DNA from: a virus
Direction: 5' to 3' (one strand)
Virus record (IMG/VR): IMGVR_UViG_3300032307_000622
Coordinates: 32,001 to 96,000 of that record
DNA: 64,000 nt
The first letter of the stretch is position 1. The number at the start of each line of letters is the position of its first letter. The position numbers and the translations under genes were made by a program. The notes beneath the pieces were generated by a model. It was not told the DNA's origin, did not search any database, and worked only from the letters and a program-made list of their open reading frames with translations. This document shows, in pieces, positions 3,235 through 20,451 of this stretch.

Positions 3235-3400
3235 CCTCCTCTAGCTCCTCAACATCAATGTCATAGACACCATCATAGGTAATGTCGTTGTCCATAGAAT
3301 CTCCCCAACTAGTCCAAGCTAGCTGTTCGGCTGCCTCTGCTGATTCTGCTTCTAGCTCACCAGCAAAGTCAATACGCATCTTCACATAGTATTTGGGCAT
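3209..3400 (-). CDS. Small acidic protein
   Basis: ORF track; AGAAAGTAG RBS. Confidence 0.7.
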   Translation of the reverse strand: MPKYYVKMRIDFAGELEAESAEAAEQLAWTSWGDSMDNDITYDGVYDIDVEELEEDEDDDDND

Positions 3401-3426
3401 TTATCTACTTTCTTTAGGGTAGGTCT

Positions 3427-3449
3427 ATTATGACATGACCCTCAGACAT
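3427..3449 (-). promoter_or_regulatory. Early promoter ATGTC-N12-CATAAT
   Basis: Motif copy. Confidence 0.7.
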
Positions 3450-3553
3450 TTTGTAGTTTCTGGGAAAAAAGTTATGCGGTCGTAATTATTTTTTTATCTT
3501 AATCTATATGATTATTGAAAACCTGGGCGGCTCAATTTCGATCCATGAATGGA

Positions 3554-3580
3554 GGGCAGTTTATACTCATGCCCAGGAGT
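3554..3580 (-). ncRNA. Compact H-type pseudoknot, copy 1 (ACUC CU GGGCA U GAGU AUAAAC UGCCC)
   Basis: Covarying stems across 4 copies. Confidence 0.65.
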
Positions 3581-3585
3581 GTTGC

Positions 3586-4590
3586 TTAGTTAGCTAAAAC
3601 CAACTGAAGCAGTCTGTTCTTTTCAGCAGTTGTCACTGGGTCAAAACCAGAAGCAGCTGCTAGGATAGATTCGTTAGAACCACCACGAGCAGAGCGGTAC
3701 CAGTCTAGTCTTTCAGTTAGAGCGTTGAAAGCTCCCCACTTAGTTCCAGCGATTGTGTTGTTATACTCACCAACATAGATTGCGTTGATTAGGTCAATCT
3801 TATCGTTGTGCTTTTTGAATGAGCCCTTAGAGTCTTTTTCTGGGGCAGGGTAAGCGAGTTCAACAATCTTGTCAAACTGTGCCTTGGTGATTTCAGTTTC
3901 AATCATAGCCTTAGCCATCTCATCAAACTTATCCATGTAAGCGTTAGCCAAACCAAGAGCCTCTCTAGCTTGCTGAACTTTGCCAGAAGCTGTTGCGGTG
4001 TGTCTAATCTTGAATGACTGCTTGACACTTCCACCTCTGCCACGATTACCAAGAGCAAGGTTTAGAGTGTTAGCACATACAACACGAACTGGTGTGATAC
4101 TAGCTTGAATGGCAACAGAACCATCATGGCTAGTGTTGATTAGAAGATAAGTGTTTACCTTATCAGACACGCCGTTAGGGTCTAGGATAGTCTCACGCTC
4201 AAGAGCAAGAGAACCAAAAACCTGTCTGCCACCCTTGATAGAGCCAGCAGTCTCCCAACGACCTCCGCCATCTAGCATCAGGTCTCCGAAATCAAACAAG
4301 TCTTCATTCTGAAGCGGAACATAACGCTCACCAACTACGCCAAGAACATCATTTTGTTCTGAGTTGAATGGGTTAGTTCTAGTTACGAATGAGTAACCCT
4401 TGTCTGAAGCAAAACCATCAGGAATTGCTACATCTTCCAAGCGAACATTCCAGTTAGACAAGTGTGCCAAGTCTAGCATCTCTGCTGTGGTTACTTCCTT
4501 GTCAAAGACTGTGCCTAGCCCATGCCAAGCTGGCTGGCGAAGGGAAGCAAAAGCGGTCTGTCCGTTTACGGTCTCTAGCTCATGTGCCAT
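3586..4590 (-). CDS. DUF932/DUF945 family phage/plasmid protein
   Basis: MAHELE...AWHGLG N-terminus, Y..LQNE, WETAGS..GG, SHDGS, TPVRVVCANTL motifs. Confidence 0.9.
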   Translation of the reverse strand: MAHELETVNGQTAFASLRQPAWHGLGTVFDKEVTTAEMLDLAHLSNWNVRLEDVAIPDGFASDKGYSFVTRTNPFNSEQNDVLGVVGERYVPLQNEDLFDFGDLMLDGGGRWETAGSIKGGRQVFGSLALERETILDPNGVSDKVNTYLLINTSHDGSVAIQASITPVRVVCANTLNLALGNRGRGGSVKQSFKIRHTATASGKVQQAREALGLANAYMDKFDEMAKAMIETEITKAQFDKIVELAYPAPEKDSKGSFKKHNDKIDLINAIYVGEYNNTIAGTKWGAFNALTERLDWYRSARGGSNESILAAASGFDPVTTAEKNRLLQLVLAN

Positions 4591-4628
4591 GTTTTTCTAC
4601 TTTCTGTTAGGGGATTTCTAATAATCTA

Positions 4629-4657
4629 ATTATAGGGTTACCCTCCGACATTGTCAA
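4629..4657 (-). promoter_or_regulatory. Perfect TTGACA-N17-TATAAT promoter containing the ATGTC box
   Basis: Read directly from sequence. Confidence 0.9.
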
Positions 4658-4781
4658 GGATTCAGGGCAAAATAATTAATCTTCGTAAATAACAGTTTGG
4701 TAACAAAATGGGGGCCGCCCAAATCCACCCACTCAGTATTTGTGATCACGAGATCTTCAGCTTTTGTGTGGGTGGCTGGGT

Positions 4782-4808
4782 GAGCAGTTTAGCGACATAC
4801 TCAGGTCG
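4782..4808 (-). ncRNA. Compact H-type pseudoknot, copy 2
   Basis: CGAC CU GAGUA U GUCG CUAAAC UGCUC; U-G wobble fixes the strand. Confidence 0.65.
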
Positions 4809-4817
4809 TTTGTCTGT

Positions 4818-5264
4818 TTAGATAAGTTCCATTACAGACGAGTAAGATGAAGCAGAAACTTCCTCTTGCGTAGTCATACGAAGCACCTTGAGATTACGCT
4901 CTAGGATTTCCTTACGAGTTGAGTGTTCCCTACCAAACCACTCACGCTGGTTAGGCTTGCTTGGCTCAGTTGGCTTCTCTCCCAACCCAATTAGTTCTGG
5001 GTCTAGGACAAGTTCCAGCCTACCATTGTAGTTGGTTGAGATACGAATAACGCTATCGTAGTCATAACCAATCTTGGCAGAGTTGTTCTTGAGATACTCA
5101 GAAACAGCACTAGCAACCTTCTTCTTGTATTCCTCAGTTGCCAACTCATACTGCTTACGCTCATCTGCGTAGTTTGCTACTGCCTCGTCAATCTTCGCAA
5201 TAGACTTCTCAATGTCTGCGATTAGAACGGATACAGGGATTTTTACGGACATAGTTCTAGCCAT
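4818..5264 (-). CDS. Hypothetical coiled-coil protein
   Basis: ORF track; AGAAAGTAG RBS; own promoter. Confidence 0.8.
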   Translation of the reverse strand: MARTMSVKIPVSVLIADIEKSIAKIDEAVANYADERKQYELATEEYKKKVASAVSEYLKNNSAKIGYDYDSVIRISTNYNGRLELVLDPELIGLGEKPTEPSKPNQREWFGREHSTRKEILERNLKVLRMTTQEEVSASSYSSVMELI

Positions 5265-5725: not shown

Positions 5726-6274
5726 TTAGACTGCTTGTTCTTCTTTGAGGTACGAGTATACTCCGCACTTTGCTCTCTCACAATAGTCCTCATTAGTTAT
5801 CTCACGGACCTCTTGGAAAGTCAGAGTCAAAGTATTGTCTCCGTAGGTTGTAGCAAAGGTTTGGTTATCAAGATTTATGATGTAGATACCCTCACAGAAT
5901 AAATCATCATTCTTGAACTCTGGGTCTAGCACTAGCGGCACAGGGTCAGTAGCGTTGACAATTACCTCAAGAATACCAGCACCAGTATCTCTAGTTAGGC
6001 TAGGATAGTCCTTACTAAACCTCTCGCCATCTTCCAGACTTCCCATACCATCTTCTCTAAAGTAGTTGGCATAGATTTTCTTTAGCTCCTCATCACTTGC
6101 CTGATAGGTCAGGTGTAGGTCAAAGTTTTTCTCTAGCTTTTCGATGTTCGTTGGCTTAGACAAAAAGTTTACAATAGTGATACCCTGCCCACTTGGATAG
6201 TGGTCCCATTGACCATACTGGGCTACTACTGTCTTTCCGTTGTAAATTACCTCTGTAATTCCTCTAGTTCCCAT
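5726..6274 (-). CDS. Conserved phage hypothetical protein (MGTRG...QYGQWDHYPSGQG)
   Basis: ORF track; ATG at 6274 after GAAAGTAGG RBS. Confidence 0.8.
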   Translation of the reverse strand: MGTRGITEVIYNGKTVVAQYGQWDHYPSGQGITIVNFLSKPTNIEKLEKNFDLHLTYQASDEELKKIYANYFREDGMGSLEDGERFSKDYPSLTRDTGAGILEVIVNATDPVPLVLDPEFKNDDLFCEGIYIINLDNQTFATTYGDNTLTLTFQEVREITNEDYCERAKCGVYSYLKEEQAV

Positions 6275-6302
6275 TTTCCTACTTTCTTTTGTTGGTGAGA
6301 TT

Positions 6303-6325
6303 ATTATACATTGGGGGTCAGACAT
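6303..6325 (-). promoter_or_regulatory. Early promoter ATGTC-N12-TATAAT
   Basis: Motif copy. Confidence 0.8.
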
Positions 6326-6380
6326 TTAGGTTCTTAATTCGTAACTGTTATAAAGCTGTGATCTGGGCCGCCCTAAAGGT

Positions 6381-6463
6381 GGCCAGTTTTTCGTCATGGC
6401 CAGGACGTGGTCCACATGTTAGAAAGGATAAGAAGTGTGGACCATCTTGCCCCTATGCAAGAT
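6381..6463 (-). ncRNA. Candidate sRNA: short hairpin, anti-RBS hairpin (loop CUUCUUAUCCUUUCUAACA) and pseudoknot copy 4 (6381-6407)
   Basis: Perfect 7-bp and 9-bp stems abutting CGUC CU GGCCA U GACG AAAAAC UGGCC. Confidence 0.6.
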
Positions 6464-6535
6464 CTATTTTCTGGAATATACAAATATGAGACATGCTATT
6501 CCTAGGAAGTACAGAGCCCAGTGATACAGCTCCAT
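6464..6535 (-). CDS. 23-aa single-TM peptide MELYHWALYFLGIACLIFVYSRK
   Basis: TAATG coupling to the upstream gene; hydrophobic. Confidence 0.5.
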   Translation of the reverse strand: MELYHWALYFLGIACLIFVYSRK

Positions 6536-7254
6536 TACTTTTTACTCGCACTAAACAATATGTCATTGCGAGCAAATACGCATTGTCCGCAGGTAACGCA
6601 GGCGGAACCCTTGTCGCTAATTAGCGGAAGTTTCTTAGCATTCTCAGGGCACGGTATTGCAGACTTGACGGTGATAGACAACATCCGCTCTTTACCGCTA
6701 GCAAAATTGTTAGCAAGATATGCAAGCTTTACGCCACTATCTTTCTTTAGCTTTTCTGCCAGCTGCCAGTTGTCATCATCAGTTGAGAAGTATAGTGCAA
6801 GGTTGTCAACATCGCTAAGAATTGGAACAGCAAAATCTGACCTCGTGTATACCCAGAATTGAATTTGGGGGAATGCCTTGATTACATTCTTCCAGGCCTT
6901 AGTATAGTCTTCACTAAAGAAGTCACCATCCCAGTGAATTCGAAACAGCTTTTCTGCATTACGCTTGTCACAATCTTTCTCAAACTCTTGAATCATTTGA
7001 TAAATTAGAATTTCCATTTCCAATTCATCTGCATTACGTAGCAGGTCCCAATTGTTTATGAGAACAGCTTTTACGCCCTTGTAGACTTTTTCGAGCTTGC
7101 CTGCATAACAGACTTTCTCGCATACACTTGTTGCTCCAGGGCAGGAATAAGCTTTCCCTGAAGGAAGGCCAAAAGTGTTCGCAATAGTTGGCGTTTTACC
7201 ATTTGGAGAGACTGCATTAGTTACCTTTCGGTCTTTAGAACGGATTAGGGGCAT
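6535..7254 (-). CDS. Gp88-family protein (radical-SAM-like Cys motif)
   Basis: CPGATSVCEKVCYA, FRIHWDGDFF, WVYTRS, CP...CVTCGQC; start 7254 after GAAAGGA. Confidence 0.8.
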   Translation of the reverse strand: MPLIRSKDRKVTNAVSPNGKTPTIANTFGLPSGKAYSCPGATSVCEKVCYAGKLEKVYKGVKAVLINNWDLLRNADELEMEILIYQMIQEFEKDCDKRNAEKLFRIHWDGDFFSEDYTKAWKNVIKAFPQIQFWVYTRSDFAVPILSDVDNLALYFSTDDDNWQLAEKLKKDSGVKLAYLANNFASGKERMLSITVKSAIPCPENAKKLPLISDKGSACVTCGQCVFARNDILFSASKK

Positions 7255-7276
7255 TAGGGGTCCTTTCAACAGTTAT

Positions 7277-8556: not shown

Positions 8557-8582
8557 TTATTTTCCTTTCTTCTGATACTTAG

Positions 8583-8946: not shown

Positions 8947-8971
8947 TTATTCCTTCTTTCTAACTACTAAA

Positions 8972-9261: not shown

Positions 9262-9371
9262 TTGTTATCCTTTCTTTTATTTATCTTTATTTATCTTTAT
9301 ACTTATACTCTACTCCCTATTGTCCCTTTGTCAAGTTGACACGCCGTTATTTTTATAACTTTTTGGTAACA

Positions 9372-9488: not shown

Positions 9489-9512
9489 TTTTTATCCTTT
9501 CTTTATACTATT

Positions 9513-9804: not shown

Positions 9805-9895
9805 TAGTTATCCTTTGCTAGTTCTGTTTCTAATACTACAATAGAGGCAATAGCCTTGTCAAATTCTTCCCAAGTGTCAAAAGTTAGAGTTATCA

Positions 9896-10087: not shown

Positions 10088-10107
10088 TGTTTATCCTTTC
10101 TATCTAG

Positions 10108-10260: not shown

Positions 10261-10513
10261 TTTGTATCCTTTCTATTTATCTAATTTATCTTTATATATA
10301 TATCTAAACATACTATTAGTGAAAAGTCAAGTATCAAAACATACAAACTTTAGCGTGTCGTTTTGTAGGGTTCAAACAAAAGTTATTAACAGAGTTATTA
10401 ACAGGTGGCACTAGTGTGTGCTCACTAAGTTTTTTGTTGTGTTTGTTGTAAAATCTGCATCATACATCTCTACAAAATATTCAGATTTTGCAAAATATAA
10501 AATTTTTCAGATT

Positions 10514-19819: not shown

Positions 19820-20451
19820 TGTCTACTATTTCTTCTACCCCTAAAGTTGCCTACATCTATGACTCTCAAACAGATACATGGCACCCAACTGCTGGAGCAG
19901 CAAACACCTCAGAAAACTATTCGTGGTCTGGCGAACACACCTTCAACGATTCTGTAACCCTGAACGATGTAGTTGTTGCAAAAGCTGGCATTAATAATTT
20001 TCAAAATCCTACAGCGAGAGATGCAGCAATTCCAAGTCCAGCTAACGGAACAGTTTGTTTTGTTAGACAAGACAATTCTGGAAATTCAATTAGGCAAATT
20101 CAATATTATTCTTCAACCAGTTCACGATGGGTAAACTACTATGACGCTCAGCTTGAAAATAAAACTGCCAACTATGTTATTACTCTAAGCGATAGTGCTA
20201 AGGCAATTACAATGGACTCATCTTCCGCAAACACTGTCACTGTTCCAGCAAATTCTACAACAGCAATTCCTGTAGGAACTATCGTAACAGTTATTCAGAC
20301 TGGAACTGGTGCAACATCTTTTGTAGAGGCATCAGGAGTAACAATAAGAAGCAAAAACTCCCACAAAACTTTAAATACCCAGTATTCAGCTGCACAATTA
20401 GTAAAAACTGATACCGATATTTGGATACTATTAGGCGATCTTAAGGCATAG
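19819..20451 (+). CDS. Tail-fibre protein with C-terminal domain shared with 29396 (...W.L.GDL.A)
   Basis: Visible paralogy of the last ~95 aa. Confidence 0.7.
   Translation: MSTISSTPKVAYIYDSQTDTWHPTAGAANTSENYSWSGEHTFNDSVTLNDVVVAKAGINNFQNPTARDAAIPSPANGTVCFVRQDNSGNSIRQIQYYSSTSSRWVNYYDAQLENKTANYVITLSDSAKAITMDSSSANTVTVPANSTTAIPVGTIVTVIQTGTGATSFVEASGVTIRSKNSHKTLNTQYSAAQLVKTDTDIWILLGDLKA

Follow-up and report, generated by a model that had tools for sequence, protein, structure and literature searches.

As judged from sequence comparison, the gene of a GP88-family protein in a clade of uncultured phages is trailed by a conserved, modular and structured region, probably a 3' untranslated region (UTR), which consists of two hairpins, H1 and H2, followed by a compact pseudoknot, hereafter the knot. 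The unit was analyzed in a 64,000-nt stretch of one such phage, called the window below (bases 32001-96000 of the 116,302-bp IMG/VR virus record IMGVR_UViG_3300032307_000622, which has direct terminal repeats; the G+C content of the window is 37-43%). Comparison of relatives has shown that H1, H2 and the knot exist as RNA structures in the sense of the genes, on the minus strand, which carries genes from 3.5 to 11.8 kb of the window. The reading favored here, albeit tentatively and at somewhat less than even confidence, is that the unit would act as an anti-initiation-site module directed at the early class of ribosome-binding sites (RBSs), with the knot as its stable cap. The unit and its surroundings, read along the minus strand, comprise the following features.

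7246..7267, minus strand: translation initiation region of the GP88-family gene, proposed from complementarity as a bipartite target of H1 and H2
6535..7254, minus strand: GP88-family gene (Pfam PF17338 GP88, E 3.3e-55)
6464..6535, minus strand: micro-open reading frame (micro-ORF) for the 23-aa hydrophobic peptide MELYHWALYFLGIACLIFVYSRK, whose start overlaps the GP88 stop by one base (TAATG)
6444..6463, minus strand: hairpin H1, stem AUCUUGC/GCAAGAU and loop AUAGGG, carrying the conserved string UAGGGG
6408..6444, minus strand: hairpin H2, with a 9-bp stem and a 19-nt loop displaying UAUCCUUUCU, identified by its fold and by 20 of 20 distinct variants
6380..6407, minus strand: H-type pseudoknot of 27 nt (6407-6381) plus an A at 6380, identified by covariation (covariance model [CM] score 47.3 bits, E 4.8e-12)
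6303..6310, minus strand: extended -10-like box TGTATAAT before the next gene, read from the sequence

In H2, the minus strand reads UGGUCCACA (6444-6436), followed by the loop CUUCUUAUCCUUUCUAACA (6435-6417) and by UGUGGACCA (6416-6408), and the knot directly abuts it with the sequence CGUC-CUGGCCAU-GACG-AAAAAC-UGGCC(A). Its helices are P1 (CGUC/GACG) and P2, in which UGGCCA of the hairpin loop pairs with UGGCCA of the tail, while L1 is a single C and L3 is AAAAAC. The likely start of the GP88 gene is the ATG at 7254-7252 (MPLIRSKD...), the list of ORFs having a TTG at 7269; it was chosen on the basis of the conserved MPLIRSK/MLIRSK N-terminus and of the Shine-Dalgarno (SD) sequence in relatives. 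The first-pass annotation, which was made from the sequence of the window, had placed the unit behind a 23-aa hydrophobic ORF coupled to a GP88-family gene, and the TAATG overlap and the PF17338 match bear this out. The micro-ORF appears to be optional, as six of ten distinct related loci have a 23-aa ORF whose product combines a hydrophobic core with a basic C-terminus, and the other four have none.

A search with the GP88 protein yielded 29 related viral loci (L002-L030). The complete H1-H2-knot unit follows the GP88 gene in the 14 closest of them (L002-L015, 79-90% identity) and is absent behind it in the 15 more distant ones (L016-L030). Among all the loci gathered, 20 distinct variants of H2 were found, and each of them forms a hairpin abutting the knot, with UCCUUUC in its loop; the hairpin ends 0-4 nt from the knot, mostly 0-1. 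The combination of MAFFT and RNAalifold recovered only the knot helix P2 from these 20 sequences and left the drifting stems unaligned, and hence per-sequence folds were used instead. The stem sequences differ among the variants, with three to five pair types at stem levels 1-9, and the flanks of the loop are variable as well, while the loop octamer UCCUUUCU is kept. This pattern supports the view that the anti-SD loop of H2 is under selection. The hairpin with an anti-SD loop that had been predicted on the minus strand is confirmed, with a 9-bp stem and a 19-nt loop. The RNA sense had also been assigned correctly, since the stems of relatives include G-U and U-G pairs, and 29 of the 137 aligned knots among the matches listed have a U-G pair, all of which would become mismatches if the opposite strand were the RNA. 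In several relatives the element begins right behind the GP88 stop codon, and the gene located downstream of the unit varies from one relative to the next.

The loop of H2 is exactly complementary, as had been claimed, to five RBSs, each located 3-5 nt upstream of the ATG of a small minus-strand ORF.

10091..10102, minus strand: RBS with a 12-nt loop complement, UAGAAAGGAUAA, 4 nt before the ATG, exact match
9265..9275, minus strand: RBS with an 11-nt loop complement, exact match
9492..9502, minus strand: RBS with an 11-nt loop complement, exact match
10265..10275, minus strand: RBS with an 11-nt loop complement, exact match
9808..9816, minus strand: RBS with a 9-nt loop complement, exact match

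Additional loop matches of 8-9 nt occur at 8563-8570 and 8956-8964. H2 alone is thus complementary to 9-12 nt of AGAAAGGAUAA-type RBSs of small early genes. The genome uses two RBS dialects, AGAAAG(G/U)A in the early minus-strand block (1-12 kb of the window) and AGGAG, GGAGG or AGGAGGUG in front of the late structural genes on the plus strand. When the test was restricted to initiation regions, the median energy of the duplex with the H2 loop was -9.7 kcal/mol for the early block vs. -5.8 kcal/mol for the late genes. None of 100 composition-matched shuffled loops reached this early-class bias of 3.9 kcal/mol (mean 0.66, maximum 3.0), and one of 100 had as many early targets (four) at -13 kcal/mol or below. 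The preference of the loop for early RBSs of the AGAAAG(G/U)A type, which had been put forward earlier, is therefore upheld by the duplex energies. In two other viral loci (L038 and L047), the loop is complementary to 15 nt of a repeated junction between stop codon and RBS, which occurs three times and twice, respectively, and in the related locus L051 the longest match to such a junction is 13 nt, found once.

H1 and H2, read in this order from 5' to 3', also form a split complement of the initiation region of the GP88 gene itself, in the correct antiparallel order. This region consists of GAAAGGA (7267-7261), CCCCUA (7260-7255), AUG (7254-7252) and a second CCCCUA (7251-7246), that is, of an SD sequence followed by a C-run on both sides of the start codon. 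The CCCC run is present in the GP88 initiation region of nine of nine distinct loci with the element, vs. four of 14 without it. Out of 191 candidate initiation regions, that of GP88 ranks second for the combined duplex energy of H1 and H2, and it is the best target of H1, at -15.3 kcal/mol, among the best 12 of the 191. A bipartite target of H1 and H2 at the GP88 start is therefore proposed here; it was not part of the first-pass annotation. Regarding the targets of the loop, the complementarity to RBSs has thus stood, with the GP88 start as the best bipartite partner, while specificity for the RBSs of the same phage has not (see below).

The unit appears to be carried by the mRNA of the gene that it follows. 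The promoter scan lists nothing that resembles a promoter in the interval from the GP88 gene to H1, so that the unit looks like a 3' UTR rather than a separate small RNA (sRNA) gene. It is therefore probably a 3' UTR devoid of a promoter-like site of its own. The next gene starts with the ATG at 6274-6272, preceded by the RBS AGAAAGUAGGA, and the box at 6303..6310 marks the end of the transcription context of the unit; this box is omitted by the promoter scan because its -35 hexamer is poor. No terminator-like site is listed by the scan on the minus strand at 6300-6470. The one site of this kind in that interval is on the plus strand (6366-6384), a hairpin that the tail of the knot makes with the downstream GGCGGCC and that is followed by AGTTTTTCGT; it pairs better on that strand, with G-U pairs, than on the minus strand, where these are A-C, and it could stop antisense transcription.

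The knot is defined by a P1 of 4 bp, an L1 of one C, a P2 of up to 6 bp, an L2 of one pyrimidine and an L3 of the form NNAAAC, which gives the 27-nt consensus NGUC-C-UGGNCA-Y-GACN'-NNAAAC-UGN'CC. A strict version of this pattern was found in 31 viral stretches and in none of the species genomes searched. With a looser pattern, at least 119 viral stretches were found, giving 139 distinct elements among the matches listed (137 of them aligned), as well as at least 120 stretches in species genomes, with 121 distinct bacterial elements among the matches listed; all counts out of 139, 137 or 121, and those out of their subsets, refer to these listed matches. Covariation was determined on the ungapped alignment of the 137 sequences, in which the search pattern fixed the pairs other than those reported here as variable. 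In the helix formed by the loop and the tail, the bases at columns 15-31 are paired in all 137 sequences (GC 53, CG 28, AU 27, UA 27, GU 2), and next to them 108 sequences have a C-G pair and 29 a U-G pair. In P1, the first pair is formed in 114 of 137, by six pair types. The covariation score of 0.250 was reached by none of 500 shuffled alignments, for which it was 0.088.

Further copies of the knot are found in the same phage, and they show changes at pairs that the search pattern had held fixed, thus filling that gap in the covariation analysis.

3554..3580, minus strand: second copy, 5 nt after the stop of a DUF932 gene (CM 24.4 bits, E 3.3e-5)
4782..4808, minus strand: third copy, 9 nt after the stop of a 148-aa ORF (CM 16.9 bits, E 0.0055)
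20423-20449 of the genome (L177:524-550), plus strand: fourth copy, after an Hsp20 gene and before a GroES-like gene, identified by compensatory changes

The copy at 3554-3580 has ACUC/GAGU as P1, with a compensatory change from G-C to C-G. In that at 4782-4808, P1 is CGAC/GUCG (U-A to A-U) and one pair of P2 has changed from G-C to A-U. The plus-strand copy has a change from C-G to U-A in P1, and its P2 has gone from GGCC/GGCC to GGGC/GCCC. The pseudoknot with which the first-pass annotation had capped the hairpin is thus real, with covariation and compensatory changes, but it is not special to this RNA; comparative evidence indicates that it is a general, multi-copy and widespread module. 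Of the 139 distinct viral elements, 19 have the string UAGGGG no more than 110 nt upstream of the knot, in hairpins whose stems vary, and 117 lack the anti-SD string. In other phage groups, unrelated hairpins occupy the same position against the knot. Tandem knots, with two copies about 6-35 nt apart, were observed in eight loci (L074, L152, L186, L188, L263, L265, L266 and L294), and some of the second copies show further compensatory changes, such as that from G-C to A-U in P2 of L074.

In phages, the knot generally follows a coding sequence. In 132 of the 139 viral elements, an ORF of 60 or more codons on the same strand ends no more than 400 nt upstream, and the gap between its stop codon and the knot is never shorter than 5 nt, being 5-9 nt in 44 of these 132. 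The distance from the knot to the next start codon is 20-30 nt in 29 of 119 cases and exceeds 100 nt in 55. The genes located downstream of knots are unrelated to one another, and among the genes flanking the other viral copies PHROGs identified only Hsp20, upstream of four copies. The three copies of the window each stand after a gene and before an intergenic region of one common layout. Along the minus strand, these regions (3300-3586, 4590-4818 and 6274-6380) contain the knot, a GGGCGGCCC-like block, TTACGA/TTAAGA motifs, a promoter and a AGAAAGUAG RBS; the promoters have an AATGTC box between their hexamers, with a perfect TTGACA-17-TATAAT at 4657-4629, and the DNA motifs of these three early intergenic regions are common to relatives.

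Other settings of the viral knot were also observed. It follows an Hsp20-family gene ending in ...KKPK.I.IK/N in the unrelated viral contigs L104, L134, L151, L153 and L177. Within phage tRNA arrays, it is separated from tRNA genes by 3-11 nt (L040:5306-5408, L057:8646-8750, L067, L082, L088, L099, L137 and L190); in L040 and L057, both of high G+C content, it precedes a tRNA-Arg gene by 3 nt, and transfer-messenger RNA (tmRNA) and GOLLD RNA genes are present as well. A further group of contigs (L073, L083, L109, L126, L138, L156, L158, L166 and similar ones), which are probably marine or freshwater, has a conserved CTTGACAG.CCTGGTAGACTGA box that may be a phage promoter, then a variable hairpin, the knot and a gene starting with MFES.. 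that lacks an SD sequence.

The copies in bacteria and archaea (L178-L297) come mostly from metagenome-assembled genomes (MAGs) of Desulfobacterales, Omnitrophota, Planctomycetes, Chloroflexota and others, and most of the many bacteria that harbor a micro-ORF with the knot are anaerobes. Such a micro-ORF precedes the knot in 87 of 121 distinct bacterial elements. It codes for a conserved Cys-containing peptide, M(K/T)RFMIPRVAHC..GC or MDITIKYMLRPVAHCKEGC, is marked as coding by synonymous third-position changes, and has an SD-like motif in 75 of the 87 cases. In 77 of 87 cases, exactly 7 nt separate the end of the last conserved codon from the knot, and in 64 of 87 the micro-ORF runs into the knot, where its stop codon is found at +2, +14 or +20. 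This register suggests that the bacterial knot may work at the ribosome. The peptides have no credible family in Pfam and NCBIfam, and the neighbors of the bacterial knots include genes for Rrf2 and ArsR regulators.

The host of the phage is plausibly an actinobacterium, because its portal protein resembles those of Streptomyces phages: it is 46-48% identical to the portals of Streptomyces phages of 120-134 kb, and 127 of the 231 records that it matches belong to Streptomyces phages. No DNA relatives were found among 50,697 named phage records, and the knot pattern, with up to two mismatches allowed, is absent from the Streptomyces phages Coruscant and Tomas.

According to the favored reading, the loops of H1 and H2 would base-pair with initiation regions of the early class, namely the GP88 start and the AGAAAGGAUAA-type RBSs, and thereby occlude them, either in cis, if the 3' UTR folds back onto the mRNA that carries it, or, following processing, in trans. 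Early translation would be limited or shut off, and the late genes with GGAGG-type RBSs would be spared. The knot would be a compact fold of the triplex type, with its 6-nt A-rich L3, sited where terminating ribosomes need not melt it, and it would probably serve as a stable 3' cap or an insulator for the upstream RNA.

Several observations weigh against this mechanism. The mean longest loop match to the RBSs of the same phage is 10.7 nt, vs. 9.9 nt to those of other phages, and the loop of L036 matches its own RBSs by just 8 nt; since own matches hardly beat cross matches, the loops seem to complement an RBS consensus of the whole group rather than co-evolving targets. If G-U pairs are counted, the loop, which is CU-rich, has 212 sites at or below -11 kcal/mol in the genome, which points to a promiscuous, unspecific sequence, and its best single partner among the initiation regions belongs to an unrelated plus-strand gene at genome position 15186. 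At the GP88 start, H2 pairs with the SD sequence itself by 7 bp only. Elements that have H1 alone follow genes without a C-run in their initiation region (two of two examined), and the four GP88 loci in which the C-run is present and the element absent imply that the association of the two may be inherited rather than selected. That most knots have neither H1 nor H2 argues for a function of the knot that is independent of any anti-SD role. The fold energy of the 201-nt region is no better than that of shuffled sequences (z = -0.59), and the case for structure hence rests on the comparison with relatives and not on energy. Lastly, the sequencing runs listed for the phage are DNA metagenomes, with no RNA run among them.

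Part of this evidence would be accounted for if the unit served purely as punctuation at 3' ends and between genes, stopping exonucleases, marking a processing site or insulating cistrons, with its loops kept for contacts with proteins or for tertiary contacts such as one between GGGG of H1 and CCUU of H2. The knot stands behind three consecutive early genes in the window, before each next promoter, it is a multi-copy element of wide distribution that mostly lacks H1 and H2, and some of its copies adjoin tRNA genes in phage arrays, as in the case of the tRNA-Arg genes 3 nt away. A spacing of at least 5 nt from stop codons would suit a structure whose folding has to be preserved, and the unrelated hairpins found against the knot in other phage groups are equally in line with such a role. 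However, punctuation leaves unexplained the invariant octamer amid drifting stems, the early-RBS bias beyond all 100 shuffles, and the fact that H1 and H2 in order are the complement of the start region of the adjacent gene; moreover, features of intrinsic terminators are missing on the minus strand, and only two of the 139 viral elements have a hairpin followed by a T-run. This explanation is considered unlikely. The same applies, to a greater degree, to the knot as a translation-coupled sensor or regulator, i.e. a mechanical barrier at the entry channel of the ribosome or a small ligand-binding knot that controls the downstream gene, with H1 and H2 as accessory hairpins of the expression platform. 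The strong-SD micro-ORFs in front of 87 of 121 bacterial elements, 77 of which are in the 7-nt register, with the stop inside the knot, are consistent with this role, as are the 29 of 119 viral copies whose next start codon is 20-30 nt away and an architecture, with its one-C L1 and A-rich L3, like that of small ligand-binding or frameshift knots. Against it, a promoter follows each knot of the window, so that the downstream genes need not carry the knot; these genes are unrelated to one another, no riboswitch of Rfam is matched, the specificity cytosine of preQ1-I is found in only 28 of 139, and no conserved slippery site precedes the knot. A sensor of this kind is thus distinctly improbable.

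Two further explanations concern the anti-SD loop. H2, perhaps with H1, might mimic the 3' end of the host 16S rRNA as a decoy, not for mRNAs but for a protein by which that end is bound or cut; a ribosomal protein, a maturation nuclease and an RNase of the defense or toxin type are examples. The octamer UCCUUUCU, which we, like the first-pass annotation, take to be equal to the 3' tail of actinobacterial 16S rRNA, is alone invariant while its flanks vary, and in L051 the match is extended to CUCCUUUCU. In contrast, the loops of one subgroup are complementary to 15 nt of the RBS junction (13 nt in the related locus), which goes beyond any 16S tail, and an invariant anti-SD loop is expected under the pairing model too, since SD sequences are themselves constrained by 16S rRNA; a decoy is accordingly given very little credence. 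The first-pass annotation had itself named the case that would undo it, in which the plus-strand motif AGAAAGGATAAG does no more than serve a genuine gene on that strand as RBS, and in the window a GTG located 6 nt after the RBS-like motif does open a 29-aa ORF (6435-6524). This case fails, because no ATG, GTG or TTG is present 3-12 nt after the motif in 13 of the 20 distinct variants; the ORFs of the remaining seven are short, of 13-36 aa, and mutually dissimilar, and the G-U pairs put the selected structure on the minus strand. A gene at this place is hardly credible.

The unit was also compared with known RNA families. The whole window gave no match to Rfam 15 at gathering scores, and the region 6250-6560, at E up to 10, gave three weak matches at chance level, the best being MicA on the other strand (21.2 bits vs. 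a gathering score of 41). No Rfam family overlaps the knot in 10 viral or 18 bacterial loci. A literature text search, which did not cover the candidate tables of a catalogue of 8,495 candidate motifs (PMC10690425), found no description of the knot, of the micro-ORF or of a phage anti-SD RNA. As far as Rfam and this text search reach, the 27-nt knot is undescribed.

Some candidate identities can be set aside. A hairpin followed by a T-run within 90 nt behind the knot, as in intrinsic terminators, occurs in two of 139 viral and nine of 121 bacterial elements. ARAGORN finds no tRNA in the window, and a tRNA mimic is not indicated either, as an A at +1 after the knot (89 of 139) is followed by a mixture of C and U, without a conserved CCA. 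Frameshift-stimulating pseudoknots are preceded, at 5-9 nt, by a slippery heptamer within an ORF that goes on in the -1 frame. Such a role does not fit a knot that follows stop codons, with no conserved slippery site or position upstream except the stop-codon signal; the AGU AAA AAG UAA found upstream of the knot in the window is not kept in relatives.

Frameshift knots of the luteovirus type are compact H-type pseudoknots with an A-rich L3 in the minor groove of P1. These knots and the preQ1-I riboswitch are similar in size to the knot described here (27-28 nt) and share with it the stacking of two helices, an L1 of one nucleotide and an A-rich L3 of 6 nt (here NNAAAC), and in the case of preQ1-I the likeness of an H-type knot with an A-rich L3 is one of shape only. 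In contrast to them, P2 is longer here (6 bp), L2 is a single nucleotide and the knot follows stop codons. According to the review PMC11625349, preQ1-I riboswitches are marked by a specificity cytosine that immediately precedes the 3' strand of P1 (UC or AC). In the knot, the base preceding GAC is U in 100 of the 139 viral elements, the others having C (28), A (eight) or G (three), and membership in preQ1-I was rejected.

As for H2, sRNAs with anti-SD loops are represented in Gram-positive bacteria by RsaE/RoxS, which have C-rich loops, and by the actinobacterial 6C RNA. The unit shares with them a pyrimidine-rich anti-SD motif in a hairpin loop, present in all 20 distinct variants, that complements the SD sequences of several mRNAs. 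It differs from them in being phage-encoded and probably part of a 3' UTR, in its CU-rich motif fitting the AGAAAGGA class of RBSs, in its second loop, UAGGGG, directed toward the C-run of one start region, and in having a pseudoknot end instead of a terminator. The promoter and terminator of its own that a trans-acting sRNA of this kind would have are found neither upstream of H1 nor on the minus strand, respectively. The C4 antisense RNA of phages P1 and P7 precedes its target and is excised by RNase P. Like the unit, it is a phage RNA in the operon of its target, with two loops for two neighboring sites over the RBS, whereas the element described here lies downstream of its proposed target gene and has an unrelated sequence. 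In phage T4, the proteins RegA and RegB shut off early mRNAs; the logic proposed here would be similar, early genes being silenced via a feature of their initiation region, except that the proposed effector would be an RNA acting by complementarity only. With regard to the knot, structured protectors of 3' ends include the terminator and REP hairpins of bacteria and the triple-helix ENE of eukaryotic viruses. The knot likewise stands right behind a coding region, and its triplex-type fold would be a plausible block to 3' exonucleases. We know of no bacterial or phage 3'-end protector based on a pseudoknot.

A broader proposal combines several of these elements. The knot would represent an undescribed and widespread class of translation-coupled RNA, either a ribosome-operated switch or an exonuclease-proof cap, which decides the fate of the flanking cistrons, and in this clade it would have been joined to a two-loop antisense of an early start, yielding an early shut-off made of RNA only. 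In phages, the spacing of 5 nt or more from the stop codon would then hold the knot just outside the footprint of a ribosome that terminates there, and many anaerobic bacteria would keep it in the 7-nt register behind the Cys-containing micro-ORF. This proposal is possible, if rather unlikely.

If the favored reading is true, the phage would tell its early RBSs, of the AGAAAGGA type, from its late ones, of the GGAGG type, by plain RNA complementarity and silence the former, and an RNA would thus do a job known from proteins in T4. Independently of that reading, the knot is a small pseudoknot with textbook covariation, found in at least 119 viral and at least 120 bacterial stretches, placed with strict geometry with respect to stop codons and to a conserved micro-ORF, and belonging to no Rfam family. 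It is an abundant candidate for a new RNA element operating between translation termination, mRNA decay and downstream initiation.

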